From contig PFQB01000098.1 in the NCBI GenBank assembly GCA_002793355.1, positions 1 through 32,142 of the forward strand: a stretch of 32,142 nucleotides of DNA, given 5' to 3'. How positions within the stretch are numbered: position 1 is the stretch's first letter; each line of letters opens with the position of its first letter. Below, one piece after another: positions 1,638 through 32,142 of the stretch. This DNA comes from Candidatus Dojkabacteria bacterium CG_4_10_14_0_2_um_filter_Dojkabacteria_WS6_41_15. Its GTDB lineage: Bacteria; Patescibacteriota; Dojkabacteria; GCA-002793355. Made by a program: the position numbers and the translations under genes. The notes under the pieces are model-generated. The model was not told where the DNA came from and did no database searches. It saw only the letters and a list, made by a program, of their open reading frames with translations.

Positions 1638-1722
1638 GTTCTGCGTTTGAATATAGCGATACACATATGTCTTAGTAGAATTGGTGTAGAATATAACACT
1701 TAATTATTATTCACCTAGAAAT

Positions 1723-2235: not shown

Positions 2236-2236
2236 C

Positions 2237-2683: not shown

Positions 2684-2713
2684 CATTCACTTTTCGCGTG
2701 CAATACTTGCAGC

Positions 2714-3853
2714 ATGAAAACATTTGCTGCGATTGCCACCTATCTAATCAGTAAACGACTTACGTCAAGTCAGTCGATGGCAAAATGGTTTGTCACTTTA
2801 CTTGGACAGTTTGGGGCAACGGGAAAAGCCGCATTTTATCAGGGTGAATTTCATGAAGCGATACGACAACTGTATGATAGCGATATTTTAAATAGCGAGC
2901 TTGCGTCGCATTTGTTGCAAATCACGCTGTGGTTGGACGAAGCACTAAGTTTTGTCGAAGAGTTGGAAGATAGTGGTGTCAAAATTTTGTTGCCTGGCGA
3001 TTTCGGCTTTCCTGCAGAGTTTGCCGAAATCGCCGACAAACCAGCAATATTATATTGCCGCGGTAACCTCGAACTGCTTGTTGCCAAAGAAAAAATCACC
3101 TTGGTTGGTACTAGAAATCCGTCTTTATGGGGACAATTGAAAGCAAAACAATTCGCTTTTGAGGCTGCAAACTGCAATATTGTTACTGTTTCCGGGTTGG
3201 CGCAAGGTGTTGATTCTTTGGTATTTGAAGAAACCTTGCGCGCAAAAGGAAAAACAATTGCAATACTTCCGCAACTACCTAAAAATGCAAGTGTTGAGGT
3301 TTCTGCCAATTCTTTACTTGTATCTGAGTATCCTCCTAGCGATGTAGAAATCTCGAAGTGGCAGTTCATCGCGCGAAATCGTTTACTTGCAGCCCTATCT
3401 CCAGCAACAGTAATTATTGAGGCTCCGTTGCGAAGCGGAGCGCTAATAACGGCAGATTTGGCAATCTCCTATGGCCGTTCCGTATATGTTGCAATACCCG
3501 ATCCCAATGAAGAAGTATCGTACGGAGGGCTTACTTTTGGAATTCAACAAGCACTAGGAGCCTTTATTCAAAGCCTGTACGACTTGCTTTACCTTGAAGA
3601 CCGAGGAGAGTTGCTGGAGACCTATAAGCTATTTATAGAACGTCTATCACAAGGAAAAATTGCCATCAAACCAAAGGACCATCGGCATCTGTCACAGGCA
3701 GACCTAAAGAGATACATATATGCGTCATCTAAAGGCGATTTATCCTGTTTCGAGTCTTTCGTGGTAGAATTACACCGATTTGGTATTATTAGAGAACGAA
3801 AAAACAAAATGGTAATTAATTTCTCGGGATATAATTCATGGCCAAAAACTTAG
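2714..3853 (+). CDS. dprA: DNA processing protein DprA/Smf
   Basis: Rossmann-like DprA core motifs (VSGLAQGVDSLVFEETL, IIEAPLRSGALITADLA). Conserved dprA-topA adjacency with a 16-nt overlap. Confidence 0.85.
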   Translation: MKTFAAIATYLISKRLTSSQSMAKWFVTLLGQFGATGKAAFYQGEFHEAIRQLYDSDILNSELASHLLQITLWLDEALSFVEELEDSGVKILLPGDFGFPAEFAEIADKPAILYCRGNLELLVAKEKITLVGTRNPSLWGQLKAKQFAFEAANCNIVTVSGLAQGVDSLVFEETLRAKGKTIAILPQLPKNASVEVSANSLLVSEYPPSDVEISKWQFIARNRLLAALSPATVIIEAPLRSGALITADLAISYGRSVYVAIPDPNEEVSYGGLTFGIQQALGAFIQSLYDLLYLEDRGELLETYKLFIERLSQGKIAIKPKDHRHLSQADLKRYIYASSKGDLSCFESFVVELHRFGIIRERKNKMVINFSGYNSWPKT

Positions 3854-6084
3854 TAATCGTAGAATCTCCGGCTAAAGCGAAGACAATTCAAGGCTATTTA
3901 GGGAAGGATTTTGCAGTAATTGCAACGGTTGGACATATTATTGATCTCCCAACCAGCAAACTTGGTGTAGATATAGAAAATGGATACGAAATGGTTTATA
4001 CGACCATAAAAGGGAAAGATAAGGTGATTGAGTCTATCAAGAAAGCCGTAAAAGCAACGTCAGGAACGGTATACTTAGCGCCTGACCCTGACCGTGAGGG
4101 AGAGGCTATCGCATGGCAAGTTGCGCAGATTTGTAAATTCCCAGCGAAGAGCGAGAAAGCACGTCGCGCCGTTTTCCACGAAATTACCAAAGAAGCTATT
4201 GGTGCTGCCATTCAAAATACACGAGACGTAGATGCATCGTTAGTTGAGGCACAGCAAGCAAGGAGAATTTTGGATCGTTTGGTCGGTTATCCGCTATCCA
4301 TGTTGCTTTGGAAAAAAATTCAATTTGGGCTTTCGGCCGGACGTGTTCAATCTGCAGCCTTACGATTGATTGTTGAACGAGAAGATGAGATTAAAGCGTT
4401 TGTTCCAACTCCATATATGACCTTTACCTCGAAATATAAAGGAACTGATGTTGTATTTACGTTAGTCGATGCGAAAGGAAGTATGGTCAAGGCAGTACCC
4501 GAGCAAGGAAATGAACTTAAGAAGCTCCTCGATTTGCAGGGAAAGCATGAGGTAATTGAGCACAAAACGAAAACGGTTACATCATCACCGCCACCACCTT
4601 TAGTGACTTCAACTATGCAGCAGGCAGCAAATCAAACCTATGGATTTACCGCCAAGATGACGATGAAATTTGCCCAAGAATTATATCAAGGCGTAAATAT
4701 CAAAGAGAAAGGCGGACTTATCGGGTTGATATCCTATATGCGTACCGATTCGGTCAACATGAGCGAGCAAGCAATTGCGGCAATTCGGGATTTAATCGAG
4801 AAAAAATATGGTAAGGAATATCTACATGATACAGCGCGACGATATAAGACAAAGTCGGCGGTCGCGCAAGAAGCACACGAAGCCATTCGCCCAACACATG
4901 TTGAATTATTGCCTTCGATGGTTCGGGAATACCTTACGCCGCAGCAGTATAAACTGTATGCATTGATTTGGCGCAGAGCGGTTGCTACACAAATGAAACC
5001 TCAGATTTTAGAGGAAGAAAATGTAAAGACGGTTCCCGTGCAAAGCGAGGCAAGAACTTTTGTTGACAAAGAGAAATGGGCGTTTGAGACCGTAGCGCAA
5101 CGAGAAGTCTTTGCTGGGTATCGACTGCTTAAACATGCAGAAGAGAAGGAAATTAAGCCACTTCCTGTAGTTTCCAAAGGTGACCAACTGACTGTTTCGG
5201 AAATTAAGGCCGAGAATTTAATGACAACGCCAAGAAGTCGCTTCAACGATGCAACGTTGGTTAAAGAAATGGAAAAACTAGGTATCGGTAGACCTTCAAC
5301 GTATGCATCCATAATAGGCACATTGATTGCCAGAAATTATGCTCTTCGCGAGATGAAATTCTTAATTCCAACAGAGATTGGAATCTTGGTGTGTAATTTT
5401 TTGAAAAAACATTTTGTAAAAATAGTTGATTACGCTTTTACGGCGCAAATGGAGAAGGAATTGGATGAAATCGCTAATGCAACGTTAACAAAAAAGAAAA
5501 TGCTAGAAGCATTTTATCCTGATTTCGCAAAAGATATTGAAGAGAAGAACAAGTCCATTGTAAAAGAGGAGTTAACGTCACTAGGTGAAACAGACAAAGA
5601 ATGCAGAAAATGTGGTACAAAAATGCACTTGAAGATTGGTCCCTGGGGTCAGTATTATGTTTGCCCGAACGAAAAATGCAAGAATAAAGAGCCTTTTGTT
5701 GATATGACGAAATACTTTGTTCCCGAAGAAGTCGACAAAGGTGGATATATTCTCAAAAAAGGACGCTTTGGCGTTTTTTGGGCTCATCCTGACTACCCAG
5801 AAGTAAAGAAAACGCTTCCAATGCTTCTTAAGGAAGTCTGCCCAGATTGTGATGCTCACCTTGTAGAAAGAAAAGGAAAAACTGGACGTCCCTTTATTGG
5901 TTGCTCAGCGTATCCGAACTGTAAGTATATTAAAAGCAGATTCTTTAAAAAGGGAGATGCTGCAAAATCCGGCGAAGCAAGTACAGCCAAGAGTCCTGCA
6001 GAAACAACGTCGATAAAAAAGGTAGTTAGCAAAAAAGTCATAAAAAAGAGTGCCTCAAAAGCTAAGACCAAGAGAACAAAGTAA
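3838..6084 (+). CDS. topA: DNA topoisomerase I
   Basis: TOPRIM N-terminus (LVIVESPAKAKTIQGYLG), catalytic Tyr context (ISYMRTDS), C-terminal Cys4 zinc ribbons (CRKCGT..CPNEKC, CPDCDA..CSAYPNC) and a Lys-rich tail. Confidence 0.95.
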   Translation: MAKNLVIVESPAKAKTIQGYLGKDFAVIATVGHIIDLPTSKLGVDIENGYEMVYTTIKGKDKVIESIKKAVKATSGTVYLAPDPDREGEAIAWQVAQICKFPAKSEKARRAVFHEITKEAIGAAIQNTRDVDASLVEAQQARRILDRLVGYPLSMLLWKKIQFGLSAGRVQSAALRLIVEREDEIKAFVPTPYMTFTSKYKGTDVVFTLVDAKGSMVKAVPEQGNELKKLLDLQGKHEVIEHKTKTVTSSPPPPLVTSTMQQAANQTYGFTAKMTMKFAQELYQGVNIKEKGGLIGLISYMRTDSVNMSEQAIAAIRDLIEKKYGKEYLHDTARRYKTKSAVAQEAHEAIRPTHVELLPSMVREYLTPQQYKLYALIWRRAVATQMKPQILEEENVKTVPVQSEARTFVDKEKWAFETVAQREVFAGYRLLKHAEEKEIKPLPVVSKGDQLTVSEIKAENLMTTPRSRFNDATLVKEMEKLGIGRPSTYASIIGTLIARNYALREMKFLIPTEIGILVCNFLKKHFVKIVDYAFTAQMEKELDEIANATLTKKKMLEAFYPDFAKDIEEKNKSIVKEELTSLGETDKECRKCGTKMHLKIGPWGQYYVCPNEKCKNKEPFVDMTKYFVPEEVDKGGYILKKGRFGVFWAHPDYPEVKKTLPMLLKEVCPDCDAHLVERKGKTGRPFIGCSAYPNCKYIKSRFFKKGDAAKSGEASTAKSPAETTSIKKVVSKKVIKKSASKAKTKRTK

Positions 6085-6806: not shown

Positions 6807-7844
6807 ATGGACCAAGAAAAAGCAAACATTTCATTTCCTTCAACAGACGATCTGTTGAAAGCAGGCGCCCAATTTGGACACTCTGCACAACGCTGGCACC
6901 CAGCATTTCAGCCCTTCATTTACAAAGAAACCAAGGGTATTCATATAATCGATGTACGAAAAACTGTACCTGCGTTAAAAACTGCAGTTGAATTTCTTGT
7001 TGCTTCCGTTCAAAAAGAAGCACGAGTATTAATTGTTGGTACGAAAAAACAAGCTGCACCTATTGTATTGGAAATGGGCGAAAAATTTGGAGTTTACTAT
7101 GTAAATGACAAGTGGCCCTCAGGCTTGCTCACAAACTTTAAAACTGTTTCTCAGTCAATTCAAAAATTGCAAAGATTACAAGAACTTCATATCAAAAAGC
7201 GCTATGTGCTTCCAAAAATGGAGTTGCTTGCTATGCAACGAGAAATCGAGAAATTGAAAAAGCGCTTTAACGGCGTTATGTTCATGGATCGACCTCCACA
7301 GGTAATGATTATTATTGATACCAAGTTTGAAAAAATCTCTGTAAAGGAAGCCCGTGCCTTAGATATTCCGATCGTTGGTGTTGTAGACTCGAACTGTGAC
7401 CCAAGACTTATCACGTATCCTATTCCTTCAAACGATGATGCAATCAAGGCAATTCGTTTACTCTTTGGCGTTTTCAGTGAAGTTCTCAGCAAATATAGCA
7501 CTAAGCGCTTGGTTCCTATGCGCGAACAATTTGCTCGACGCTTAGTCGAACTTGAAAAATCTGTAGAAGAAGAGCACCGAATTAAGCTAGCCAGCGAAGC
7601 ACCTCAAGCGGCCTACGAACCAGTGGTTACTCCTCGAGAAGAATCAAAGACAGGTCGAACTGTTCGTGTTACCTCCTTCCGCGCTGTTGCTGATCTTAAA
7701 CTCCCCGCGTCAGTAATCGAGAAACTTACTCAAGCAGGAATTACTTCGGTCGAGCAATTGAAAGAGAAAACTCTCGACGAGCTTAAAGGAATTAAGGGAA
7801 TTGGCGCAAAGACGGCTGAGAAAATAAGCTCATTGGTCAAATAA
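6807..7844 (+). CDS. rpsB: 30S ribosomal protein S2 with an approximately 100-aa C-terminal extension ending in a helix-hairpin-helix motif
   Basis: The S2 core (GAQFGHSAQRWHP, IVGVVDSNCDP) is preceded by a strong SD. The tail contains LKGIKGIGAKTAEKI. Confidence 0.95.
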   Translation: MDQEKANISFPSTDDLLKAGAQFGHSAQRWHPAFQPFIYKETKGIHIIDVRKTVPALKTAVEFLVASVQKEARVLIVGTKKQAAPIVLEMGEKFGVYYVNDKWPSGLLTNFKTVSQSIQKLQRLQELHIKKRYVLPKMELLAMQREIEKLKKRFNGVMFMDRPPQVMIIIDTKFEKISVKEARALDIPIVGVVDSNCDPRLITYPIPSNDDAIKAIRLLFGVFSEVLSKYSTKRLVPMREQFARRLVELEKSVEEEHRIKLASEAPQAAYEPVVTPREESKTGRTVRVTSFRAVADLKLPASVIEKLTQAGITSVEQLKEKTLDELKGIKGIGAKTAEKISSLVK

Positions 7845-18868: not shown

Positions 18869-18889
18869 CAATAATTTTTGTTTATAAAC

Positions 18890-19546
18890 ATGCCACGAAA
18901 TTTTCAGCCAGTGATTGTGGAGCCAACTCCTTTTCCATCAGAATCAAAATTTGTATTAGCAATTGAAGAACGCGTTGATGGATTCCTCCAAACAATGCTA
19001 AAAGAAGAAGAATACGTAAGTGTACAAACAGCACTATGTTCATCCAAAGGATGGGTTGATACAAGCAACCATTTCTATAAACCAAAATCAAACAAAGGAA
19101 CGGATCAGCCGCACAGAGTCAGGGAAGAAAACGTAAAAGCGCTCGATGGAACATTGTATGCATGTGTTACGCACGCATATGTGCCAGAAGCACAAGAAGA
19201 TATGGAGCTGGAGACTAGCCGGGTAATTCCCGTTGCAGGGCAACATGGTTCGGTCGAGTTAGTGTGTAGAACGTACCAAGACGGAGATTCAGATAAGAAC
19301 TGGTCGGTATCGGTTAGTCCCTATAATGGGACTCATTGGTCTCTTGAAGTGATGAGTAATGTTGATGATTCCAATAGTGCTTTACGTGTTGTTGGTCAGC
19401 ATGAAGCAAATGAAGAGTTTCTGAAACCATTTAGTACCTATTTGGGCATTTCGGTTGGAGAATTGAAGCAGCTTTTACACGAGCAAACGAATGCTCTGAA
19501 GGTTATTGAAAAAATTCGCGAAATTCTTTTTTCAGAAACAGCGTGA
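18890..19546 (+). CDS. Orphan protein, member A of a tandem paralogous triplet
   Basis: ORF with an ATG at 18890 (the TTG at 18878 is less likely). Its C-terminal block VVGQHEANEEFLKPFSTYLGISVGELKQL aligns with members B and C. Confidence 0.65.
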   Translation: MPRNFQPVIVEPTPFPSESKFVLAIEERVDGFLQTMLKEEEYVSVQTALCSSKGWVDTSNHFYKPKSNKGTDQPHRVREENVKALDGTLYACVTHAYVPEAQEDMELETSRVIPVAGQHGSVELVCRTYQDGDSDKNWSVSVSPYNGTHWSLEVMSNVDDSNSALRVVGQHEANEEFLKPFSTYLGISVGELKQLLHEQTNALKVIEKIREILFSETA

Positions 19547-19573
19547 GCATTGGTGTTGAGATTGTAGAAGTGG

Positions 19574-19592
19574 TATAACTAGAAGCTCCCCA
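19574..19592 (+). promoter_or_regulatory. -10 box plus conserved TCCCCA leader motif, copy 2
   Basis: TGgTATAAC (-10 hexamer at 19574-79), a 7-nt spacer, TCCCCA 19587-92, then 24 nt to the ATG at 19617. Confidence 0.5.
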
Positions 19593-19616
19593 CTATTTTT
19601 ATTAGGTACATTGACT

Positions 19617-20306
19617 ATGGCAGTAAAAGCAGCTAACGCGAATGGTTCAGAAGGGCTCACGACATCAATAAGGGCAAGCTTTCAATACGAGGACAATCGA
19701 TTAAGACGGGAAGTGACGGAAGAAAAGGTAGAACATGCGATTAAACAGGACCTCTCTTCACTAGCAATAAGACATTTAACCGAGCAAGAAATCGACGTGA
19801 TTCGACCTAAGAAGCAGAGTGAATTGGTCATAGAGGTTAGTAGCCCTAAGTGTCTTGGCTGTAAAAGGCAGATAGAGTATCACGCACATTTATTAGAAAG
19901 TGATAATGGCTTTTCTGTAGCATTTGACCATAAGCAGCGGGGGAAAGAGATTCTTTGTTCAGCAATTACTGTTTCAAGAGAATTTGCTGGTGTTGTTGCT
20001 GGAAATCCCAATAGTATTGTCATGAACATAGAAAGCAAGGGGGAACTTAACGAATACTCCAGGATTTCGGTGTCAATTCCCCAAGTTGACGCAACGAAGA
20101 CAGCAAAGTTAGTAATCTGCTTTCATGGATCCGTTGGTTGGGTAAATTGGAAAGACGAAATCAACAATGAAGAACTACTAGCGCTAATTCCGGATTTAAC
20201 ACCGGAGGACCTAAAGAACATGCATGTTGCTGCAACTCGTGACCGCGTATTTAACATTCTTCGCAGTATGCTATTCTTTAACAAGACGGTGGCTGAGGGG
20301 ACGTAA
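19617..20306 (+). CDS. Orphan protein, member B of a tandem paralogous triplet
   Basis: The ATG at 19617 is preferred over the TTG at 19611. C-terminal block INNEELLALIPDLTPEDLKNM. Confidence 0.65.
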   Translation: MAVKAANANGSEGLTTSIRASFQYEDNRLRREVTEEKVEHAIKQDLSSLAIRHLTEQEIDVIRPKKQSELVIEVSSPKCLGCKRQIEYHAHLLESDNGFSVAFDHKQRGKEILCSAITVSREFAGVVAGNPNSIVMNIESKGELNEYSRISVSIPQVDATKTAKLVICFHGSVGWVNWKDEINNEELLALIPDLTPEDLKNMHVAATRDRVFNILRSMLFFNKTVAEGT

Positions 20307-20365
20307 GCACTAGCGCATTGTTTAAGGTTATCAGTTAGTTATTGTAGGTAAACTGCCTGAAATGA

Positions 20366-20384
20366 TATAATTACTGACTCCCCA
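20366..20384 (+). promoter_or_regulatory. -10 box plus conserved TCCCCA leader motif, copy 3
   Basis: TGaTATAAT (-10 hexamer at 20366-71), a 7-nt spacer, TCCCCA 20379-84, then 22 nt to the ATG at 20407. A possible -35 TTGTAG lies 18 nt upstream. Confidence 0.5.
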
Positions 20385-20406
20385 AGTTAAATTACGCAAA
20401 TAGATT

Positions 20407-21108
20407 ATGCCAAGTGCTGATACAGAACATATTAGTAAGGAAAAAATTTTCGTTTATAAAGACCCACAAGGTGGACCAGTCTCTGAAAACGATAAAAGGG
20501 TAGTTACAAGAGATATTGCTACGAAAATAGGTAAGCTTGTAAAGGAGTCCTTTCCAAAAGCATTTTTGGATGAAGTCTTGGCTGAATGTCCGGAACTGGA
20601 GTGTAGTGCAACGACACCTAGAAAACATCTTGATGGTAATTTTAGGGCAATTAAATATACAGCAACTGCTAATTATCCCACAAAGAACGGTGCAGCTGTA
20701 AGAATTAGTCTCAACAGAGAACCCGAGCGACAAGCCAGCCGAAAGATTGTTGTTAAAAGAGAAAATGAAGGTAAGTTCGGCATATGCTCAGTAAAGTATG
20801 TTACCGCATGGAATCCCGGAGCTAATCAACATACAGAGTTTGTCGAGGTCGCTGTCATAGGAGATGATTATAAGCCAGCTTCGTTGATTATTTCCAGAAG
20901 AGCTGATGGAAAACGAAATGTAAAAATTGTTGGGGAAGGTGCAACTAATCCTTCGGCCATCGGAGAGATAAAAGATTATCTTGGTTTAAGAAGCGATATC
21001 ACTCTTATGAAGCCAGGAGCTGAAGATGTATGGGAATTTTCGCCAGATGCTGAAGACATCGAAGGAAAAGTGCTCTTAATGGTGTTCGCCAATCGTTGCG
21101 GAGATTGA
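20407..21108 (+). CDS. Orphan protein, member C of a tandem paralogous triplet
   Basis: C-terminal block IVGEGATNPSAIGEIKDYLGLRSD aligns without gaps to member A (VG..N.........YLG[IL]). Confidence 0.65.
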   Translation: MPSADTEHISKEKIFVYKDPQGGPVSENDKRVVTRDIATKIGKLVKESFPKAFLDEVLAECPELECSATTPRKHLDGNFRAIKYTATANYPTKNGAAVRISLNREPERQASRKIVVKRENEGKFGICSVKYVTAWNPGANQHTEFVEVAVIGDDYKPASLIISRRADGKRNVKIVGEGATNPSAIGEIKDYLGLRSDITLMKPGAEDVWEFSPDAEDIEGKVLLMVFANRCGD

Positions 21109-23709: not shown

Positions 23710-24549
23710 ATGGCGGTAGTAAAACCAGCACAAGAGCCTTGGAAAGAAGGTAAACCTCAATCGTATTCAATCAGTGAAATTACTGAAGCAAGAAAAGTTG
23801 GGCTAAGAAGTGACCCAACACTAAGAGCGCAAATGACCCCTATCGAAGGGAGAACGGCTTCTCGTGGCATAGCTTATGTGAATTTAGGCTTAATTGCGAA
23901 GCATGGCGCAGACCAAAGCGACGTAATTTTTGGTGGGCACGACGACAGTTGGAGTGTTGCTGCTGTAAACACCTCTTGTCTTGATTCTGTTGATGGTATG
24001 GTCGGTTCAGGTAGAGCAATTATCGAGACGAATAGTCAACGACCAAAGGTTAATACTACATATGCACTAGATACAGATTTGAAAGATCCCAATGCTATTT
24101 GCGTTGATATCGAAAGTGAGGCGTTGCCCGGTAAGCACGGCTTAGGTTTGGCACTTTGGACAAAGAGTGGCAATAAACCTGTGCAAATTGACTTAACAGA
24201 TCCAGATTTAAGTGCGCTGGCAATAGTGAACAACTCATGTTTGTTGCCTATACTGTATGAATTGAAAGTGCCTACAGATACAGGAACTATCGACATTTCA
24301 CTCGAAATCATCATGACGAACCAGCAGCTAGATATACGTATTATCAGTGCTGAAGCACACTTTAGTATTCAAGTTCCTAAAGCTTCAATGTCTGTCTTTA
24401 ACGAATTAACTTCTGACGTGTTTGACTCATTATGTCAAGGCAAAGTATTTAACCCTTATCGCCCGAAAGTATACAAATTCAATAAGGATAGTTCTCCTTC
24501 GAATCTGGGAATTTCAGCAGTTGGTTCTGGCTCGTGGTATCTTTCATAA
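23710..24549 (+). CDS. Orphan cytoplasmic protein, function unknown
   Basis: 279-aa ORF with its own promoter and no recognisable motif. Confidence 0.6.
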   Translation: MAVVKPAQEPWKEGKPQSYSISEITEARKVGLRSDPTLRAQMTPIEGRTASRGIAYVNLGLIAKHGADQSDVIFGGHDDSWSVAAVNTSCLDSVDGMVGSGRAIIETNSQRPKVNTTYALDTDLKDPNAICVDIESEALPGKHGLGLALWTKSGNKPVQIDLTDPDLSALAIVNNSCLLPILYELKVPTDTGTIDISLEIIMTNQQLDIRIISAEAHFSIQVPKASMSVFNELTSDVFDSLCQGKVFNPYRPKVYKFNKDSSPSNLGISAVGSGSWYLS

Positions 24550-24578
24550 TCTGCAATGAGTACAAGCACATAAATTAT

Positions 24579-24587
24579 TGATATAAT
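24579..24587 (+). promoter_or_regulatory. Extended -10 TGaTATAAT driving a leaderless transcript
   Basis: Element at 24579-24587. The ATG at 24593 is 5 nt after the -10 box. Confidence 0.55.
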
Positions 24588-24592
24588 ATAGG

Positions 24593-25495
24593 ATGTTTGA
24601 CAACTTGGAGAATCTTGGTGGTGATTCTGAAGATTCACTTGCTAGGTTAATGCAAGATGCGAGAGAAAATGGATTACAGATTCAGACTATACCAGGGAAT
24701 CATTCTATTGGAGGAGGTCGTTCAATATTCGTTTTTGTTACCCATCCTCGCCAAGATGGAGATGTTCAATTGGCTTATTATGAAGTTGAGGACACATATT
24801 ATGAACTTGGTGAGCATACTGTGGACTGTTCTCTTGCAGGTGAAGGCTTTCAGTGTGAAAGTGGAGAACGTACTATCTTAACTGGCCAGAATCCTGGAGC
24901 TGAATGCCATTCAATAATAACATTTCCGACTGCAGGTGGCACACCAAATATGGCGATGAATTTTCAGGCATCCTCCTATATGCTTGCAAATGGAGGTAAA
25001 ACTTCGCAATCTGTTGAAATTACGATTGGGGCAGCGTCTGTAAGTCTAAATCTTGACGATTTTGAATTAATTGATGATTCTGCCCTTGAAGCAGTCGAAA
25101 CAGATTCTGGCGCTGAAGTTGGGGCTGAGGATGATATTGTATTTGATATTGATGAGAAGGGGCTTCATCTAGTCGAGAGCTCGCGATGCCAAGAAGAAAT
25201 AGTCCAGGATATCGATTTGACTTCAGCATTATTTTTCGATGAAGTACGAAATACAAGAAAATACCATTTAGAAGGCTTGGCACATCCTATTGCTGTTACC
25301 TGCTTTCGCTACGCCTCGCATACTCTTATCACGTTGCGCTATCAAGGAACAAAAATAAAAGTGGATTTTCCTGTTCCGACAAGCGAGGGATTATTAGATA
25401 TTGAAGAAATGGTTGGGTATGCACTGCAAGATGGAAATCTACCAATGTTTGCGGTCCCAAAAGTGGTTGATTTGCAAAGACACCTTGCGCAATAA
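24593..25495 (+). CDS. Orphan protein with a central acidic segment, function unknown
   Basis: 300-aa ORF with the acidic stretch DDFELIDDSALEAVETDSGAEVGAEDDIVFDIDE. No motif recognised. Confidence 0.6.
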   Translation: MFDNLENLGGDSEDSLARLMQDARENGLQIQTIPGNHSIGGGRSIFVFVTHPRQDGDVQLAYYEVEDTYYELGEHTVDCSLAGEGFQCESGERTILTGQNPGAECHSIITFPTAGGTPNMAMNFQASSYMLANGGKTSQSVEITIGAASVSLNLDDFELIDDSALEAVETDSGAEVGAEDDIVFDIDEKGLHLVESSRCQEEIVQDIDLTSALFFDEVRNTRKYHLEGLAHPIAVTCFRYASHTLITLRYQGTKIKVDFPVPTSEGLLDIEEMVGYALQDGNLPMFAVPKVVDLQRHLAQ

Positions 25496-25548: not shown

Positions 25549-26793
25549 ATGACCCGAGTCCTCGATTTTTTTAAGAAATACTGGCTACCCATAACACTGA
25601 TTTCGCTGGCGATAACGTCCAAGTTTATTGGTTTTCTGCGTAATGCCTTTATCGCCTACTTCTTTGGCGCGTCGTATACGTCGGATTTGTTGGGAATTTT
25701 GATGTTTCCAACGGACTTTGTGTTGGCATACCTGATTAACCAAACGATTATTACCGCGTTAACAATCTTTTTCTCGCGAGACCAATCTGCAAAACGGGAA
25801 GTTTTTTTACGAACGTTCCATTTTTACCGGGTAATTCTCACTATAGCTTCGGTAGTCTTGGCAATTGTGATGATTGTTGTGTATCCAACGGTTCCCTGGC
25901 AGTACGGTGTTTTAGCAGCGATCCCCGGGATTTTCTATGGTATGGCGGGCATTATTCAAAGTTACCTGAACTACAATCGGGTATTTATATGGCCAGCAAC
26001 GCAAGAATTAATTGCGAATCTCGTTTTGTTATTCGGCGTTGCTCTTGCTGCGAAATACGGAATTTATTGGTATGTGGTGGTGATGATTGCGGTGGGAATG
26101 TTGCGGATTTTAGTGATGTACCCCGATTTGCGCAGACTGCTGGCGGATAAACCCTGGATTCGCGAATTATTTGGTATTCAGAAGATAAAGTTTGAAAAGG
26201 AATTACTTATTTATATCGGCCCGATTTTATTTACTTTTATTTTGTCGGGCCTGCCCGGCTTCCTGATTTTGCACAAGCTAAATGCAGCCGGCGAAGGCTA
26301 CATTGCAGCATACAACTATGCCAACAAGATTATCAACCTGTTTAACCCCATTTTTGTGATTCCGCTGACCACCTACCTGATTCCCACCATGCAACGGTGG
26401 ATAGAAGAGAAACGATCAGTTGTTGCGGTCAATACGACCGCTTTCTTGTTGCTGGGCTCGGCCTCTTTTGCCTTCGCCCTCGTCCTCGTCCTCTGGCCCG
26501 ACTTTCTAATAAACGCGATTTATGCCCGTGGGCACTTTGACCATCAAGCCTTGTGGTTAACCAGTAAGTTCCTGCGGTATCAAGCGTTTGCGGTGGTGGG
26601 CTACGCGCTGATGTACTACCTGTTGCAGTTGACGTTGCTGCATAACAAGCCCCGGCGTCTGATGGCCTCGTTTATTCTGGGCACGCTGGTGATCATCGGG
26701 CTACTGTATTTCTTGCCCTTTGCCCCGTACATTACGGTTGGTCTCTCGCTGACGTTGGGGGTGCTGGGGAGTATAGTTGTGTTGATACTTTGA
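25549..26793 (+). CDS. murJ: Lipid II flippase MurJ/MviN family
   Basis: Multi-TM protein. The N-terminal KFIGFLRNAFIAYFFGASYTSD matches the MurJ signature region. The start is uncertain (TTG 25510, ATG 25540 or ATG 25549). A TGcTACAAT element at 25533-41 favours a leaderless start at 25549. Confidence 0.8.
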   Translation: MTRVLDFFKKYWLPITLISLAITSKFIGFLRNAFIAYFFGASYTSDLLGILMFPTDFVLAYLINQTIITALTIFFSRDQSAKREVFLRTFHFYRVILTIASVVLAIVMIVVYPTVPWQYGVLAAIPGIFYGMAGIIQSYLNYNRVFIWPATQELIANLVLLFGVALAAKYGIYWYVVVMIAVGMLRILVMYPDLRRLLADKPWIRELFGIQKIKFEKELLIYIGPILFTFILSGLPGFLILHKLNAAGEGYIAAYNYANKIINLFNPIFVIPLTTYLIPTMQRWIEEKRSVVAVNTTAFLLLGSASFAFALVLVLWPDFLINAIYARGHFDHQALWLTSKFLRYQAFAVVGYALMYYLLQLTLLHNKPRRLMASFILGTLVIIGLLYFLPFAPYITVGLSLTLGVLGSIVVLIL

Positions 26794-26890
26794 AAGATGT
26801 AACTATTCCTTTACAACAAGTAATATATGAGAAATACTATCTTGATATGGTAACAAAGTATACATTCAAGGAGTATCGAAAACATACCGT

Positions 26891-27163
26891 TTAAGGATTA
26901 TCATTGGAACTTGGTATTTCGAATAAAATTCCAGTTGATTGAAATTTTTCATACAGTGCATCAAGAATAGTTTCTTCAAGGTCTTTAGGTAAGCGCTTGG
27001 GTGTACCTAATATATCACCAGAACGAACCCCACTGACAACAACGATACATGTGCGAATTTCAGGTGGTAATGATATTGAAACACTACAGTAATAATTTGC
27101 AAAGTTTTGTGAACAGAAATCTTCTGTGAATGTTTGAATGTCTTGTTTGGTTATTTCTTTCAT
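26891..27163 (-). CDS. Small hypothetical protein (90 aa)
   Basis: The only ORF longer than 60 aa in the 1.56 kb gene-poor region. On the minus strand a TGtTACAAT element ends 6 nt before its ATG, the leaderless arrangement used elsewhere in this window. Confidence 0.4.
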   Translation of the reverse strand: MKEITKQDIQTFTEDFCSQNFANYYCSVSISLPPEIRTCIVVVSGVRSGDILGTPKRLPKDLEETILDALYEKFQSTGILFEIPSSNDNP

Positions 27164-27246
27164 TCGTTAATTGTAACATGGTGCGAAATGCTTGCTATTA
27201 CGGAATAGTCACCAAAATGTATTATGTGGATGTGGTTAGAATGAAC

Positions 27247-27255
27247 TGATATAAT
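27247..27255 (+). promoter_or_regulatory. Extended -10-like element TGaTATAAT
   Basis: Read directly from the sequence. No clear -35 box. Confidence 0.3.
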
Positions 27256-27297
27256 CAGAGCCTACACACTTTACCTCTTTAATGAGAATCACAATAC

Positions 27298-27327
27298 TTG
27301 ACTTGCGTCAAGTATCCGTACTATAAT
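27298..27327 (+). promoter_or_regulatory. Promoter TTGACT-18-TATAAT with a palindrome over the -35 box
   Basis: -35 at 27298-303 and -10 at 27322-27. The palindrome ACTTGAC-ttgc-GTCAAGT spans 27296-27313. Confidence 0.6.
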
Positions 27328-27333
27328 ATCGAT

Positions 27334-27430
27334 ACAAACAAATATTGGGGCTGTTTGCTAGATACAGGCAGCACCAGAGGAGAGAAACGAGCGTCTCAAT
27401 TTCAGAGAAGCCACGCCTCTCTTTTTTTTG
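27334..27430 (+). ncRNA. Candidate small RNA of about 97 nt, from the predicted TSS to the intrinsic terminator
   Basis: The predicted +1 is at 27334 (A, 7 nt after the -10 box). It contains no ORF. It ends in a bulged GC-containing hairpin (27379-27422) followed by T8 (27422-27429). Confidence 0.4.
27379..27429 (+). terminator. Intrinsic terminator-like hairpin plus U-tract
   Basis: GGAGAG(27379-84)/CTCTCT(27417-22), GCGT(27391-94)/ACGC(27413-16), and an inner CTC/GAG pairing, followed by eight T residues. Confidence 0.45.
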
Positions 27431-27475
27431 GCCGACGTCTTGTTTGACCTTAATTGGCATTTTTGCCCGGATTTC

Positions 27476-27504
27476 TTGACAAGCGAGTGCGGCCCAATTA
27501 TAAT
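27476..27504 (+). promoter_or_regulatory. Perfect consensus sigma70-type promoter TTGACA-17-TATAAT
   Basis: -35 TTGACA at 27476-81, a 17-nt spacer, -10 TATAAT at 27499-504. Predicted +1 at 27511 (A). Confidence 0.7.
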
Positions 27505-27597
27505 TGTAGTAACTTTATTTTCTCAGGCTATCTAAATCGCAAGGCCAGAGAAATATAAATATTTGTTTGTTTTTCCAACGACGTAAGGAGAGACAAA

Positions 27598-27660
27598 ATG
27601 CTCAGCTTTGACCAGTCAAATAGGATTAGGTTGGCTTTGTGTATGTTCTTTAACAATTAG
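27598..27660 (+). CDS. Mini-ORF of 20 aa (MLSFDQSNRIRLALCMFFNN), a possible leader peptide
   Basis: Strong SD TAAGGAGAG (27584-92) 7 nt upstream of the ATG. Ends AAC AAT TAG. Confidence 0.35.
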   Translation: MLSFDQSNRIRLALCMFFNN

Positions 27661-27670
27661 ACGGAGATAT

Positions 27671-27904
27671 GGTACACCCTTCTAGATTAAGCAAACAGGA
27701 GGTATTTTACAATGGCTAAAACGAAGTCATCTAGTTACGGCGTTCAGCGTCAGAAAATTGTTCCAGTAAGAAGTTACAGAACAAAAAACGGTACTAGAGT
27801 GAGAGGTCATCGAAGATCTACACCAAACTAGTACCAAACAGGTATTAAGGCATCTCATACGCAAATATGAGTGGTACATAATTTAACCCTCGGAAGGGTG
27901 TACC
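27671..27904 (+). repeat. 12-nt long-range inverted repeat bracketing the 39-aa mini-ORF
   Basis: GGTACACCCTTC (27671-82) is the exact reverse complement of GAAGGGTGTACC (27893-904). Confidence 0.6.
27712..27831 (+). CDS. Mini-ORF of 39 aa, a highly basic peptide (MAKTKSSSYGVQRQKIVPVRSYRTKNGTRVRGHRRSTPN)
   Basis: SD CAGGAGG (27696-702) about 9 nt upstream of the ATG. 12 of 39 residues are Lys or Arg, plus one His. Ends AAC TAG. Confidence 0.5.
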   Translation: MAKTKSSSYGVQRQKIVPVRSYRTKNGTRVRGHRRSTPN

Positions 27905-27914
27905 TTACCTCTAT

Positions 27915-28029
27915 CTAAAGAAGATATTTAAGAATCTCGTAGTAGCTCCAATTTGTAGAGCAATGGGCCGTTAACTCATTGGTTACAGGTGCGAATCCTG
28001 TCTACGAGATTCTTAGTTATCTTCTTTGG
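27915..28029 (+). ncRNA. Extended leader/trailer helix that coaxially continues the acceptor stem of the tRNA-like element
   Basis: 27915-27935 pairs with 28009-28029: about 21 bp with one mismatch and two G-U pairs. The discriminator base (28009) is included in the pairing. Confidence 0.5.
27936..28009 (+). tRNA. tRNA-Asn(GUU)-like cloverleaf, non-canonical (C33, G55, no GG in the D-loop, no encoded CCA); possibly a tRNA mimic or pseudo-tRNA
   Basis: Manual fold. Acceptor CTCGTAG/CTACGAG. U8 A9. D-arm GCTC-CAATTTGTA-GAGC. Anticodon arm ATGGG-CCGTTAA-CTCAT. Variable loop TGGTT. T-arm ACAGG-TGCGAAT-CCTGT. Discriminator A. Confidence 0.5.
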
Positions 28030-28351
28030 GGAATTATATTAGGGACAAGTACTGGAAATTTTTCCATATCATTTATATGATAGTGCGGTAAACCTTACTT
28101 GTCAACAATGCTTATTGTAACCCACATTACCGCTCACTGTCAATACTATAGGTTAGCCATTCCCCATTATTCCTCTTAACTCCAACCTAAGTTATTTCAT
28201 TGTTTTTCTATCTCTTGCGGTCAGGGGATAGTTACCTAGAAAGATGAGGTTGACAGCAAGATTACAATGTTAGATACTCATTAATGGTATTGAAACTACT
28301 TGAGGTGGCAATCCTCACAATTGCACCTTTGCTTGCAAAGATTAGACTTCC

Positions 28352-29011
28352 GTGGTCCCCATAGTGAGTGTCTCTTCATTGCTTCTAAAAAAGGATTGGT
28401 TAGGGCTTTATCTTAGCCGATTACCCTTCCCTAAAAGCCTGTATTATTTTGTGTTTTTGTCGCGTTATTATAAGTTTTTACTAGAATACCTTTCTCTTGA
28501 ACAAATTGTGGTATTGCACCAAGGGTATGAAAAATACCTCGATTCTGAACTATCAAGTAAAGCGCTACTTGATACTCTGTTGCTAGACACATTAATATTC
28601 GCTAAGGCGTATGAAGATGATAGGACACTGGAGTTGATTTTAGAAAATTGGACGGAGACAATAGTTAAGGCTCATTCGTTCGATTTAGTAAAAAGAGCAA
28701 CTGAGGACCAAATCGTTCTGAGAGTAGAACGTGCTATTTACCTATTGTTAGATACAAGAAATCTGATGCCGAATGACGTATCGCAGTATAAACAATTTTT
28801 TACCAGCTATTACATTATGCGCCAAATATTTGATGATATTGGTGATTACGTTGATGATATGCGTAATGGGATACGTACTTTCGTTCTAGAGGTTGGAAAG
28901 GTGAAGGCAAGAGAAACGATATTGAAGCACCACTTTAATATTCAGCGATTACAGATGCCTCTATATTACAAGCGTTTAATTAATTTGTACTGTCAATATT
29001 ATCTTAAATGA
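28352..29011 (+). CDS. Hypothetical helical protein with Asp-rich motifs faintly resembling class I isoprenoid synthase folds
   Basis: 219-aa ORF with a GTG start (uncertain). RQIFDDIGDYVDDMRNGIRTF resembles the second Asp-rich motif region of phytoene/squalene or polyprenyl synthases. AKAYEDDRTLE is a possible first motif. Confidence 0.45.
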   Translation: MVPIVSVSSLLLKKDWLGLYLSRLPFPKSLYYFVFLSRYYKFLLEYLSLEQIVVLHQGYEKYLDSELSSKALLDTLLLDTLIFAKAYEDDRTLELILENWTETIVKAHSFDLVKRATEDQIVLRVERAIYLLLDTRNLMPNDVSQYKQFFTSYYIMRQIFDDIGDYVDDMRNGIRTFVLEVGKVKARETILKHHFNIQRLQMPLYYKRLINLYCQYYLK

Positions 29012-29082: not shown

Positions 29083-32000
29083 CTAGTTTAATGGCCACTT
29101 AGGTAATAATCCATCAATTTCTTTCATAATTCTGTCAGTATTTACTAATGCAACAATAATTCTCTGATAGTGTAGAACTTCATCAAAAGTAAGTTTCTTT
29201 CCTTTTCTATCTTTTAGCCATTTCTGAGTTGGTTGATAACCACCGATATATAAATCCCATGCAATTTGAGGAACATTATCAAAATATTGAGTATCATTTA
29301 TCCAAACCTTATTTTCTGAATACTTAAGATTAATAACTTCGTTTTCACCTGCTACTGGATATTGTGTGATTAACGAACTGCTATTTGGATGTTCCATCAA
29401 GTGATTCTGTCTAATTACTCTACCTTTTTCTACTAATGACCAGAATAGCTTTTGATCAGATGTGAATGGAATTCGTGGAAAATCAAATTTCAAGAATTCT
29501 TTGTATCGTTCTCGATATGTTGGAGAGTGAAGAATTGCGTAAACATAATCAAGCACATCCAATGGATTGAATGTCCCTTCTTTGCCTGAATCAGCGTGTT
29601 CGTGATCGGGTATAAATTGAAGCTTTAGCTTTTGTGCTATTTCAGCAATGATTTTTTCGTCAAGGTTTGGTTTGCGAGTTGAAGAATCAAGTTGGTTTTC
29701 TGAGTATAAATATAAAGGAAACATGTAATCTGAACCTTGGACACCAGGACAAGAATAGACTCGAATATCTGCGATTTCATTGGTTATATGGCATGGTGGA
29801 GAATTAAAGTCTTGTCCTCTTTTTGTAATAATTGAATAATTATCATATATCATATGACTATTAATCTTTTTGCCTGGAGTTCCAATAAATCCTTTTGAAT
29901 TACCTGAATACCATGTCCATCGTTTATCAAAAGGGCGATACAGTACTTCTTTATACAAATCCGAATGAATGTTTCTGCGGACGTCATTTACTGCATTCTT
30001 TAACTTCCAATCTCGTGTATCGTATGTGCTGTACTTGTTTTTTAAAGATATTTCATCTAGTTTATAAAAATCATTAACAACATTTTTAATATCACTAATA
30101 CTTGATTGAATACATATGCTATCTCTCTCAGTTTTTAATCCTGAACTGTACAACCTAAATAAATCTTGAATAGAAAAGTTGGCATTATTTTCTCCTGCAA
30201 GTTCAAGATTTTTATGTACAAAAAAGTATTCTGGTTCAAGATAATCAAGCTTCTTCCATTTCAATTTATTAACATTGCTTTGTAATGCTTCATACTTCTT
30301 TTCTCTCTTGCCCCACAATTCAGAATGGTAAACTTCTCCAAGTTTGTGCTTAGAACTCCTGTTTTTTACAAAAATATTGATACTTACGCCTTGCATAATA
30401 TCGAATACATTTTCATCTTTAGAACCGTCTGGCGATACTTCTTTCTTTTTTGCATTTCCATGCAAATCCAAAATATAAATCTTGTTAAATGTTTCTAGTA
30501 ATGATTTTCTCATCTGCCTGTGTGTTATTCCGTCAATAAACGAATTGTTTGAGATATACGCAATAATCCCCTCACCATTTTTTTCAATAAACCACTGAGC
30601 ATAACGAATGAACTTGATATAATCGTCATCTAAGTTCAATTTCTTCTCCTTTAGATCCTTTTTGTAATCTTTGATGAGATTTTGAATCCACTCGCCCTTA
30701 TTTGAACTACTTATTGAGTAAGGAGGATTCCCCATAACAACCATAATTGGCTTTTCCTTCTTAACCTCGTTAGCTTCCATACTTTCAGTAGTAAGCCATT
30801 GTGAAAACAAATCTCTTTGATGCGCTTCTGGTTCTTCTAGAGTGTTCGTAAGATACACACCTAAACGCTTTCCTTGCCCCTTAGATGAGTCATAACCAGT
30901 TTCTGCGAGAGTAATATCAAGTTTAAGATGAGCCATTGAGTAACTAGCCATCAGAATCTCAAAACCATGAATTCTTGGGAGTAAGTGCTCGTCAACGTAG
31001 CCTTGCCAAATACCTTGTTGGCCTTTGAATTTCGAGTTATAGATATGCTTTATTACATGATCAAGAAATGTACCAGTACCAGTAGCGGGGTCAAGTACTT
31101 GAACTCTGTGTTCCATTGCCTTTTGTTTCTTCTTGCTACCTTGTACTTCTTTTTCAACTTCAATTTTGCATGTATCTGCCAAACCATCTGTAATCCCAAA
31201 TTCAGTTTTAAGTATGTCATCGACAGCCCTTACAATAAAATCGACTACAGGTTCAGGAGTATAGTAAACACCTCTAGACTTACGCATTTTTTGGTCGTAC
31301 TCTCCAAGAAATGTTTCGTAAAAGTGAATAATTGCATCATGTCGTTTTGTTTCCTTGCCATAGTTTGCAAGGAGTTCGCGAACGTCAACATGGTTAAACA
31401 ATTCCGCAAGGTCATCAACAATCCATACGATTCTTTTATCGATGTTGTAGCCTGCGATAGTTTGAAAAAAGTTTCTAAGAAATGGATTCGATTTTGGTAG
31501 TAAACTGTTAGCTTCATCTCTGGTAAATGTATTCAAAGAATTATCATGGTATCGCGCTGCAAACATACCGTATGCTACTGTTTGAGCATAAATGTCCGCA
31601 TATTGTTCCAATGATAAATCGTGAATAAGCATTTGTTTAAATACTTCATATTGTTGTTCAACTTGTCCTTTTTCTTCTGACTCATCCTTCAATGATAGAT
31701 ACACAACATTTTTGAGCATTTTCGCCTTTTCAGCCATCAACGAAGCAAGTTCCTTGGGACTTCTAATAGAAATTGATTTTTGTGTTGTAAAATTTTTAAG
31801 GATGCTTTCGAGTAAAGGAATATTATCTGGTATTAACTCAATCGTGTTATCTATAAGTCTTGCGATAGCCACTTTCTGAATCGCTTGTCCATCAAGATAA
31901 AAGTGAAAATCCAAGTAATTAGTAAAGCAGAGATTGTTTAAGGAAGCTTTGTATCTATTGAACTGATTCTTTGTTTTAAATTCCTTCTCTAAATCAATAT

Positions 32001-32142
32001 CGACATCCTTTGCTTCAATATAACCGATTGGGGTTTTACCTTTAAGTAATACAAAGTCAGGTGCGCCAACTTTTTGTTGCTTTGGATCGTTTACTGCATT
32101 TATAGATGGATTTATAGATTCGACCAATGCCTCTAAAGCCGG
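29083..32142 (-). CDS. Type IIG restriction-modification fusion enzyme: PD-ExK nuclease, gamma-class N6-adenine methyltransferase and a target-recognition domain. The 5' end is partial at the window edge.
   Basis: N-terminal PDFVLLKGKTPIGYIEAKD (PD...ExK), SAM motif VLDPATGTGTFL, catalytic VVMGNPPYS, and a C-terminal HSPTYRERYKEFLKFDFPRIP block typical of the type IIG/ISP specificity region. The reading frame stays open upstream of the annotated TTG at 32127 to the end of the window. Confidence 0.85.
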   Translation of the reverse strand, partial: PALEALVESINPSINAVNDPKQQKVGAPDFVLLKGKTPIGYIEAKDVDIDLEKEFKTKNQFNRYKASLNNLCFTNYLDFHFYLDGQAIQKVAIARLIDNTIELIPDNIPLLESILKNFTTQKSISIRSPKELASLMAEKAKMLKNVVYLSLKDESEEKGQVEQQYEVFKQMLIHDLSLEQYADIYAQTVAYGMFAARYHDNSLNTFTRDEANSLLPKSNPFLRNFFQTIAGYNIDKRIVWIVDDLAELFNHVDVRELLANYGKETKRHDAIIHFYETFLGEYDQKMRKSRGVYYTPEPVVDFIVRAVDDILKTEFGITDGLADTCKIEVEKEVQGSKKKQKAMEHRVQVLDPATGTGTFLDHVIKHIYNSKFKGQQGIWQGYVDEHLLPRIHGFEILMASYSMAHLKLDITLAETGYDSSKGQGKRLGVYLTNTLEEPEAHQRDLFSQWLTTESMEANEVKKEKPIMVVMGNPPYSISSSNKGEWIQNLIKDYKKDLKEKKLNLDDDYIKFIRYAQWFIEKNGEGIIAYISNNSFIDGITHRQMRKSLLETFNKIYILDLHGNAKKKEVSPDGSKDENVFDIMQGVSINIFVKNRSSKHKLGEVYHSELWGKREKKYEALQSNVNKLKWKKLDYLEPEYFFVHKNLELAGENNANFSIQDLFRLYSSGLKTERDSICIQSSISDIKNVVNDFYKLDEISLKNKYSTYDTRDWKLKNAVNDVRRNIHSDLYKEVLYRPFDKRWTWYSGNSKGFIGTPGKKINSHMIYDNYSIITKRGQDFNSPPCHITNEIADIRVYSCPGVQGSDYMFPLYLYSENQLDSSTRKPNLDEKIIAEIAQKLKLQFIPDHEHADSGKEGTFNPLDVLDYVYAILHSPTYRERYKEFLKFDFPRIPFTSDQKLFWSLVEKGRVIRQNHLMEHPNSSSLITQYPVAGENEVINLKYSENKVWINDTQYFDNVPQIAWDLYIGGYQPTQKWLKDRKGKKLTFDEVLHYQRIIVALVNTDRIMKEIDGLLPKWPLN

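Follow-up and report, generated by a model that had tools for sequence, protein, structure and literature searches.

The locus described here raises the question of whether a tRNA-like gene that deviates at several near-invariant positions, and whose two ends are drawn into one long helix, encodes a working tRNA, a tRNA-shaped RNA with some other role, or a relic. The gene lies in a stretch of 32,142 nucleotides (hereafter the window), which comprises positions 1 to 32,142 of contig PFQB01000098.1 (assembly GCA_002793355.1) of Candidatus Dojkabacteria bacterium CG_4_10_14_0_2_um_filter_Dojkabacteria_WS6_41_15. Our favoured explanation, to which we assign a probability of roughly 0.55, is that it is an accessory tRNA-Asn(GUU) of a phage type, borne by a mobile element and fitted with stems for RNA processing or stability.

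ARAGORN reports a single tRNA in the window, a tRNA-Asn(gtt) at positions 27935–28010. The plus-strand sequence 27936–28009 matches the Rfam tRNA model RF00005 from end to end (model positions 1–71 of 71) with 52.8 bits and an E-value of 8.5e-09, the gathering score of the model being 29; both results bear out the complete cloverleaf proposed in a preliminary description of this sequence. Read directly, the RNA consists of an acceptor stem CUCGUAG/CUACGAG followed by U8 and A9, a D-stem GCUC/GAGC with the D-loop CAAUUUGUA, an anticodon stem AUGGG/CUCAU that includes one G-U pair, a variable loop UGGUU and a T-stem ACAGG/CCUGU. The anticodon loop CCGUUAA places a C at position 33, and the T-loop UGCGAAU places a G at position 55. 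The discriminator A73 is followed by UUC, so that CCA is not encoded. All 21 stem pairs are intact.

The tRNA does not carry the full near-invariant set of U8, A14, G18, G19, U33, G53, U54, U55, C56, A58 and C61: U8, G53, U54, C56, A58, C61 and probably G19 are kept, while the gene has C14, U18, C33 and G55 at the remaining positions. Three of the changes listed in the preliminary description (C33, G55 and a D-loop without GG), together with the missing CCA, are confirmed by direct reading, and C14 in place of A is an addition to that list. The statement that the D-loop lacks both G18 and G19 stands only in part. Since the loop ends in UGUA, G19, which pairs with C56, has in all likelihood been kept, leaving G18 as the only one of the two to be replaced (by U). 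Nor is the missing CCA a departure from a normal tRNA, since three distinct chromosomal tRNA genes of related genomes do not encode it either.

The truly unusual part of the locus is the pairing of the sequences that flank the tRNA. The leader arm (27915–27935) and the trailer arm (28009–28029, including the discriminator A73) pair on the plus strand at 20 of 21 positions, two U-G pairs included, with a lone U-U mismatch at 27927/28017. Added to the acceptor stem, they form a continuous helix of ∼28 bp, which we call I1 and which was also detected as an inverted repeat of 26 nt with 92% complementarity. This agrees with the earlier proposal that the flanks extend the acceptor stem by ∼21 bp and bury the discriminator. 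A 156-nt segment has a predicted minimum free energy (MFE) of −58.2 kcal/mol (z = −6.6), and none of 200 shuffled sequences was as stable. The arm sequence occurs in the window only at these two sites, against 0.07 matches expected. An extension score, defined as leader/trailer complementarity over 22 nt, was calculated for every ARAGORN tRNA in the loci fetched for comparison. The window tRNA has a score of 19, compared with a highest score of 8 for the other 156 of the 157 unique tRNAs from arrays and relatives, and of 10 for 268 unique tRNAs from IMG/VR loci (among the matches listed, n = 120 loci). I1 lies far outside the range of the 425 comparison tRNAs.

The substituted bases, on the other hand, are typical of a class of phage tRNAs. 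A search pattern that required the GCUC/GAGC D-stem, CCGUUAA and UGCRA, and that left the GG status of the D-loop free, matched 2 loci in species-representative genomes, 2 in IMG/VR and 28 in metagenomes. In all of these C33-GUU-G55 matches the D-loop lacks GG. Most belong to dense tRNA arrays, one of which packs 18 tRNAs into 4 kb, and one member of the class is carried by a 427-kb IMG/VR contig; the UGCRANU T-loop recurs in many other isoacceptors of the same arrays. Across 16 aligned C33-GUU-G55 tRNAs, 16 of the 21 cloverleaf pairs have undergone compensatory change. Several members serve as the sole Asn tRNA of their array and several encode CCA, which argues that the design works in translation. 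The nearest relative of the window tRNA is the Asn tRNA of arrays L024 and L031 (82.8% identity over 58 nt, with compensatory stem changes), with which it shares the CCAA...GUA type of D-loop and the UGGUU variable loop.

Positions 18 and 55 are also linked outside tRNA-Asn. Among tRNAs that neighbour the pattern matches, the pattern-selected Asn genes being left out of the count, 39 of 43 G55 tRNAs have a D-loop without GG and 4 have one with GG, whereas of 82 U55 tRNAs 77 have GG and 5 lack it. The D-loops of the neighbouring G55 tRNAs typically end in AGUA or AGCA. A second pattern, combining a non-GG D-loop with a G55 T-loop for any anticodon, matched at least 120 loci in IMG/VR. In the IMG/VR loci, among the matches listed, 64 G55 tRNAs lack GG and 17 have it, compared with 6 and 175 U55 tRNAs, respectively, an uncounted share of the G55 entries having been preselected by the second pattern, which demands a non-GG D-loop. 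C33 is the minority form, found in one of nine tRNA-Asn genes of the IMG/VR sample (among the matches listed). We define the class here by a UGCRANU T-loop and a D-loop without GG that ends in xGYA, and the window tRNA belongs to it by its UGCGAAU T-loop and its D-loop ending in UGUA; it does not lie in a phage genome or a dense array, standing alone on a 1.44-kb chromosomal cassette. Judged from these counts, G55 with a non-G18 base is a recurrent, covarying design of phage and metagenomic arrays and is not peculiar to the window gene, in line with the earlier view that positions 18 and 55 had co-varied rather than decayed. No earlier account of an A/U18-G55 elbow class was found in the literature searched.

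Some arrays are built wholly on this alternative elbow. All 16 tRNAs of L024 (positions 1025–4059) have a UGCRANU T-loop with G55 and a non-GG D-loop, typically ending in AGUA or AGCA, and further arrays of this kind occur in L022, L030 and L031 and in the IMG/VR loci from L060 onward. At L006 788–939, L015 712–864 and L007 953–1108 a C33 tRNA-Asn(GUU) gene (loop CCGUUAA) stands next to a U33 form (CUGUUAA or UUGUUAC); the occurrence of both forms in one array suggests that they have distinct roles. A group of GC-rich arrays (L004, L009, L012, L013, L020, L021, L033 and L035), one of which is on a contig labelled as a Methanomassiliicoccales metagenome-assembled genome, carries up to 18 tRNAs in 4 kb. 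Their CUA-anticodon genes are called tRNA-Pyl by ARAGORN, and a tRNA-Phe with the T-loop UUGGACU is followed without a spacer by the C33/G55 tRNA-Asn.

The tRNA is not the only cargo that is enclosed by a long helix. An open reading frame (ORF) for a basic protein of 39 amino acids (aa), MAKTKSSSYGVQRQKIVPVRSYRTKNGTRVRGHRRSTPN, lies upstream on the plus strand (27712–27831) and is preceded by an AGGAGG ribosome-binding site. Its family comprises 31 proteins at E ≤ 0.01, of which the 30 besides the window's own are 59–82% identical to it. The ORF matches phrog_21154 (E 5e-8), and copies are found in temperate Lacticaseibacillus and Marinitoga phages; homologues sit beside integrases at the ends of elements integrated in tRNA-Ser genes, or beside restriction systems. 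In the other genomes, the homologues have neither a tRNA-Asn nor flanking repeats. At the locus with the closest homologue, which adjoins an integrase fragment, the motif CCCGTAAA recurs every ∼20 nt 3′ of the ORF (L041, 2754–2856), and these repeats look like iterons or integrase arm sites.

The 39-aa ORF is enclosed on the plus strand by a second inverted repeat, I2, of 26 nt and 85% complementarity, with its 5′ arm at 27657–27682 and its 3′ arm at 27893–27918, the latter abutting the start of I1 and overlapping it by 2–4 nt. When the 556 nt from 27505 to 28060 are folded (z = −7.3), both I1 and I2 are present in the predicted MFE structure. A plus-strand sequence at 27476–27504 matches the consensus of a sigma-70-type promoter at 12 of 12 positions (TTGACA-17-TATAAT) and is placed for transcription of the ORF and the tRNA, which begins 105 nt past the stop codon of the ORF within the one predicted transcript. 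Two further promoter-like sites on the minus strand (28077–28143, 11 of 12 positions each) point back through the tRNA and the ORF, so that convergent transcription or an antisense RNA is possible. Three G-U pairs in the helices favour the plus strand, compared with one position that pairs, as G-U, only on the minus strand and is a C-A mismatch on the plus strand. Similarity to other loci is confined to the 39-aa ORF and the tRNA body and stops before the arms of I1 and I2, indicating that both arm pairs are specific to this cassette and were added around the cargo.

The boundaries of the cassette were defined by comparison with contig L057, the only diverged contig with a counterpart (76% amino-acid identity) of a 215-aa ORF lying downstream of the tRNA. 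In L057 the 3′ end of murJ, ∼97% identical to that of the window, is joined directly to the promoter/5′ region of the 215-aa ORF, and 26800–28238 of the window is therefore an indel of 1.44 kb that varies between strains. The empty site in L057 reads TGAAATGG. In the window, a perfect 8-bp direct repeat, GAAAGATG, flanks the segment at 26792–26799 and 28239–28246; the left copy is part of a 12-nt match, with two mismatches, that starts at 26788. The segment ends in terminal inverted repeats (TIRs) of 27 nt, GTAACTATTCC... at 26799–26825 and ...GGGGATAGTTAC at 28209–28235, which are 74% identical and share their first 8 nt (GTAACTAT). Direct repeats and TIRs thus fall exactly at the boundaries that L057 defines independently. 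With TIRs, a duplicated target site and a relative in which the site is empty, the segment 26800–28238, on sequence comparison, is built like a non-autonomous insertion cassette. No transposase, integrase or recombinase was detected in it in scans against Pfam, PADLOC, PHROGs and NCBIfam, nor was a second copy found in the window or the fetched loci. Besides the 39-aa ORF and the tRNA, the cassette holds a 90-aa ORF on the minus strand (26891–27163), which is called as a gene on contig L036 and has no match in Pfam, PADLOC, PHROGs or NCBIfam.

The chromosome around the cassette is that of a member of the Patescibacteria, with dprA, topA, rpsB, rseP, proS, ftsEX, prfB, iPGM and murJ in the window, and the cassette is inserted between murJ and a small restriction island. 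Contigs with orthologues of MurJ (71–77% protein identity) keep the gene order upstream of murJ; downstream of it they carry a response regulator and gatCAB, and the tRNA, the 39-aa ORF and the restriction enzyme are absent from that position. The related loci supplied three distinct tRNA genes, two tRNA-Ser(CGA) variants and one tRNA-Arg(CCG), all of them canonical. In each the D-loop contains GG, position 33 is U and the T-loop is of the UUCGA type, and none encodes CCA or is enclosed by a flanking helix. By these comparisons the window tRNA appears to be foreign to the host lineage.

Taken as an accessory tRNA with processing stems, the locus may be read as follows. The 1.44-kb non-autonomous TIR cassette would have delivered the tRNA gene into the chromosome, and the 39-aa ORF would be a phage 'moron'-like peptide gene that arrived with it. 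The consensus promoter would give rise to one transcript of ∼550 nt, within which the ORF and the tRNA would each be looped out by their own helix of 26–28 bp. The helices are most simply viewed as RNA elements, since one transcript is predicted, their register with the cargo ends is exact and the G-U bias is 3:1 in favour of the plus strand. Their most likely role at the RNA level would be to be cut by an RNase III-type enzyme, as are the stems around rRNAs; I1 (28 bp, one mismatch) and I2 (26 bp, three mismatches) both reach the 20 bp or more of near-continuous double-stranded RNA taken as the length of an RNase III stem. Once cut, the transcript would yield the mRNA and the pre-tRNA as separate molecules whose paired ends resist exonucleases, and RNase P, RNase Z and the CCA-adding enzyme would then finish the tRNA. 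The mature product would read AAY codons as a spare tRNA with an elbow unlike that of the host tRNAs. It may also escape modification: a UGU motif is required by tRNA-guanine transglycosylase, according to Nakanishi 1994 as cited in PMC1635277. Because C33 removes this U33-G34-U35 motif, the tRNA would stay queuosine-free.

Several points weigh against such a tRNA being matured and used. A leader paired to the trailer through positions −1/73 is a poor substrate for RNase P and RNase Z, and even after a cut by RNase III several nucleotides of the flanks would stay paired. The canonical U-turn nucleotide is lost through C33. The window tRNA has A73 where G73 is an identity element of E. coli tRNA-Asn, so that its charging with asparagine is no more than presumed. 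The flanking helix is absent from all 21 other unique C33-GUU-G55 tRNAs. Pattern scans of genomes, metagenomes and viruses found no diverged copy of the cassette, and the three other contigs with this locus are 100% identical, leaving no possible covariation signal in I1 or I2. Searches of phage and plasmid DNA collections gave one weak match only, to the tRNA body on a Bacillus plasmid (E 4e-3). The promoters on both strands are consensus matches only, and the indel might in principle reflect loss of the segment from L057 instead.

Some of the same features would suit an RNA that never takes part in translation, a reading we hold to be unlikely. Here the helix would mask the tRNA ends permanently, and the structure would either titrate a tRNA-binding enzyme or toxin, as a sponge or decoy, or form a tRNA-like 3′ cap that protects the mRNA of the 39-aa ORF from exonucleases or marks a processing point. 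A 28-bp helix that swallows the discriminator and position −1 is what such a mimic calls for, as are C33, the altered elbow and the lack of an encoded CCA; the position of the tRNA 105 nt past the ORF stop in the same predicted transcript fits a cap, and the two antisense promoter-like sites suggest regulation at the RNA level. However, C33/G55/non-G18 tRNAs are ordinary members of arrays, often encode CCA, are sometimes the sole Asn tRNA and have covarying stems, and the missing CCA matches the three chromosomal tRNA genes of related genomes. Neither Ro/Rsr (rsr/Ro60), RtcB nor a nuclease partner was found among the larger window ORFs scanned against Pfam, the neighbouring 215-aa ORF being prenyl-synthase-like. 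The likeness to YrlA or Y-RNA modules suggested in the preliminary description found no support, as no Rfam family other than the tRNA was matched above chance: a cmscan search of 26700–28500 with E up to 5 gave the tRNA and three chance-level matches only, the presence of a YrlA model in the library not having been checked. Rsr/Ro60-bound YrlA and Y-RNAs resemble the window RNA in placing a tRNA-like domain on a long stem formed from distant sequence. In YrlA, the long stem emerges at the anticodon side and the acceptor-like stem is closed, which is the reverse of the topology seen here, whereas the window RNA has a complete anticodon arm with GUU and a stem that prolongs the acceptor.

Alternatively, the inverted repeats might act as DNA, forming hairpins or cruciforms for a recombinase or for replication, or marking module borders left by the assembly of the cassette. 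That the ORF and the tRNA are each bracketed by a repeat of their own, that homology ends at the cargo, as expected for modules captured between repeats, and that the whole unit is mobile DNA all speak for this, yet we consider it distinctly improbable: direct reading finds no target-site duplications around I1 or I2, the arms have no further copy in the window, the cassette has no recombinase or transposase gene and the ends of I1, read directly, do not carry the integron attC-type consensus. The G-U pairs favour the transcribed plus strand, and the exact register of the helix with the acceptor stem would be needless for a DNA site. A miniature inverted-repeat transposable element was also considered for each of I1 and I2 and was rejected, as target-site duplications and other copies in the window are lacking. 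The least probable of the explanations, in our view, is a decaying pseudogene or attachment-site remnant with neutral substitutions and accidentally complementary flanks. It draws on the setting of the gene in inserted DNA next to a restriction island, on the four deviant positions (14, 18, 33 and 55) and on the adjacency of 39-aa ORF relatives to a tRNA-Ser attachment site; it is opposed by the 21 of 21 intact stem pairs and the 52.8-bit score, by the match of positions 18, 33 and 55 to a recurrent covarying class and by a flank complementarity over 21 positions that far exceeds that of the 425 comparison tRNAs. An integrated island would place the tRNA at its edge. Here, the tRNA is internal, at least 229 bp from either end of the cassette, and its orientation is opposite to that of the attachment-site arrangement in L042; there is no integrase and no second copy of a tRNA arm or body in the window. 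The earlier idea of a degenerate tRNA at an island junction is thus right in placing the gene in inserted DNA, and wrong as to degeneracy and junction, the gene being intact and internal.

A variant of the accessory-tRNA explanation, to which we would give rather long odds, is that the helix stores a 'pro-tRNA': a spare, queuosine-free tRNA-Asn with a variant elbow that is inert in the 28-bp duplex until a double-strand-specific RNase frees it, the co-transcribed ORF being bracketed likewise. The antisense promoters could control the cutting of its stem. If true, this would be a new way to package and conditionally activate a tRNA, and would link the widespread phage G55/non-G18 elbow to escape from host enzymes directed at tRNA.

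An accessory tRNA with processing stems, as we favour, can be set beside several known systems. Such tRNAs are well known on mobile elements, and the odd bases of this one are typical of its phage class; what is unusual is the TIR cassette as a vehicle in a Patescibacteria chromosome, and a 28-bp helix that is paired with a second helix around a small ORF. In tRNA-Pyl, G18G19 and T-Psi-C are absent, and staphylococcal cell-wall tRNA-Gly has a non-canonical elbow. As in these, the G18/Psi55 contact is replaced in the window tRNA while the L-shape is presumably kept. The window tRNA differs from them in its anticodon and context and in retaining U54-A58, G53-C61 and, probably, G19-C56, and its elbow is that of a wide phage-associated class with members for many different amino acids. 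The long, near-perfect helices of 26–28 bp resemble the RNase III stems that flank 16S and 23S rRNA in rRNA operons and those of phage polycistronic RNAs, also in that two of them stand in tandem in one predicted transcript, 3′ of a strong promoter. Compared to the rRNA stems, however, the cargo is a tRNA and a 39-codon mRNA, the helix runs into the acceptor stem without an unpaired spacer, and cleavage is presumed.

With the tRNA clusters of T4- and T5-type phages, mycobacteriophages and megaphages the window gene shares a complete cloverleaf on mobile DNA; its nearest relatives lie in the metagenomic arrays L024 and L031 and other members of the class on IMG/VR contigs. What sets it apart is that it is solitary, located on a transposon-like cassette of 1.44 kb within a cellular chromosome, and enclosed in a leader/trailer helix that none of the 425 tRNAs examined possesses. 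A further likeness is the substitution in the anticodon loop of a tRNA that is one of the four GUN tRNAs targeted by colicin E5-type enzymes, since phage tRNAs with such substitutions have been proposed to evade host tRNases (eLife 2023, PMC10264068). Colicin E5 cuts minihelices with either C or U at position 33 (PMC1635277). Escape from E5 through C33 is ruled out by this tolerance of either pyrimidine; unlike the tRNase-evading phage tRNAs, the window tRNA would not be protected by C33 against E5 itself. As for the vehicle, mobile insertion cassettes and related TIR elements likewise have short TIRs, direct repeats, passenger genes, an empty site and no transposase. The window cassette differs in being known from a single sequence (three further contigs are 100% identical), with no second insertion site or cognate transposase, and the identity of its 27-nt TIRs is no higher than 74%; here too, L057 may have lost the segment instead.

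Should the tRNA prove active, phages would not be the only route by which accessory tRNAs can enter small-genome Patescibacteria, since very small transposon-like cassettes could bring them too. The paired helices around a tRNA and a 39-codon mRNA would be a compact case of rRNA-style processing stems on other cargo, testable with RNase III. If the tRNA is inactive, a tRNA-shaped structure would have been reused as a 3′ module of an mRNA. 'Broken' universal positions need not mean decay or mimicry, which calls for caution in annotation. Pipelines and readers should recognise G55/non-G18 as a coherent alternative elbow that is common in phage tRNAs, and the class may deserve study of its own.

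The restriction island next to the cassette was of interest because the preliminary description had raised the possibility that the RNA is a decoy for the restriction system or for an anticodon nuclease. A Type IIG/ISP restriction-modification protein is encoded on the minus strand at 29083–32127, and the 215-aa ORF (28364–29011) lies between it and the cassette. The family of this ORF has only 10 representatives among 1.8 billion proteins, which share invariant aspartates in a DDIxDYxxD-type motif. Its structural model is all-alpha and confident (pLDDT 88), and the best fold matches, all weak, are polyprenyl diphosphate synthases, with a weak trans-prenyltransferase match at the sequence level. 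The product thus looks like a prenyl synthase and has no recognisable nuclease fold, judging from the model. An assignment as a HEPN nuclease (a weak PADLOC 'Cas13a' hit with E 0.014, and an R-x5-H string) was rejected on account of the DDIxDYxxD motif and the prenyl-synthase-like fold. The decoy proposal finds no support, since the 215-aa ORF is prenyl-synthase-like and occurs without the tRNA in L057, and since E5 accepts C33. A prenyl-synthase-like protein is in itself an unexpected partner for a restriction gene.

Several features of the window and its relatives lie outside the cassette. The end of contig L055 (11192–11648) immediately follows a stretch of 100% identity and repeats window positions 26282–26738 at 95.6%, indicating a strain-chimeric assembly and at least two co-occurring strains of the organism in the sample; the contig is uninformative for synteny. 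Two further lineage-specific insertions emerge when the window is compared with related genomes: three ORFs of ∼220–233 aa between ftsE and prfB (18878–21108), and two of 279 and 300 aa between iPGM and murJ (23710–25495), where relatives carry one ORF of 133–270 aa or none. These extra ORFs have no Pfam match and are not paralogues of one another. No paralogy was found among the nine window ORFs without an assigned function, namely the extra ORFs beside ftsE/prfB and murJ, the 90-aa ORF of the cassette and three near the start of the window. Lastly, ribosomal protein S2 (6807–7844) carries a C-terminal helix-hairpin-helix extension (residues ∼292–342) similar to the alpha-subunit C-terminal domain of RNA polymerase.

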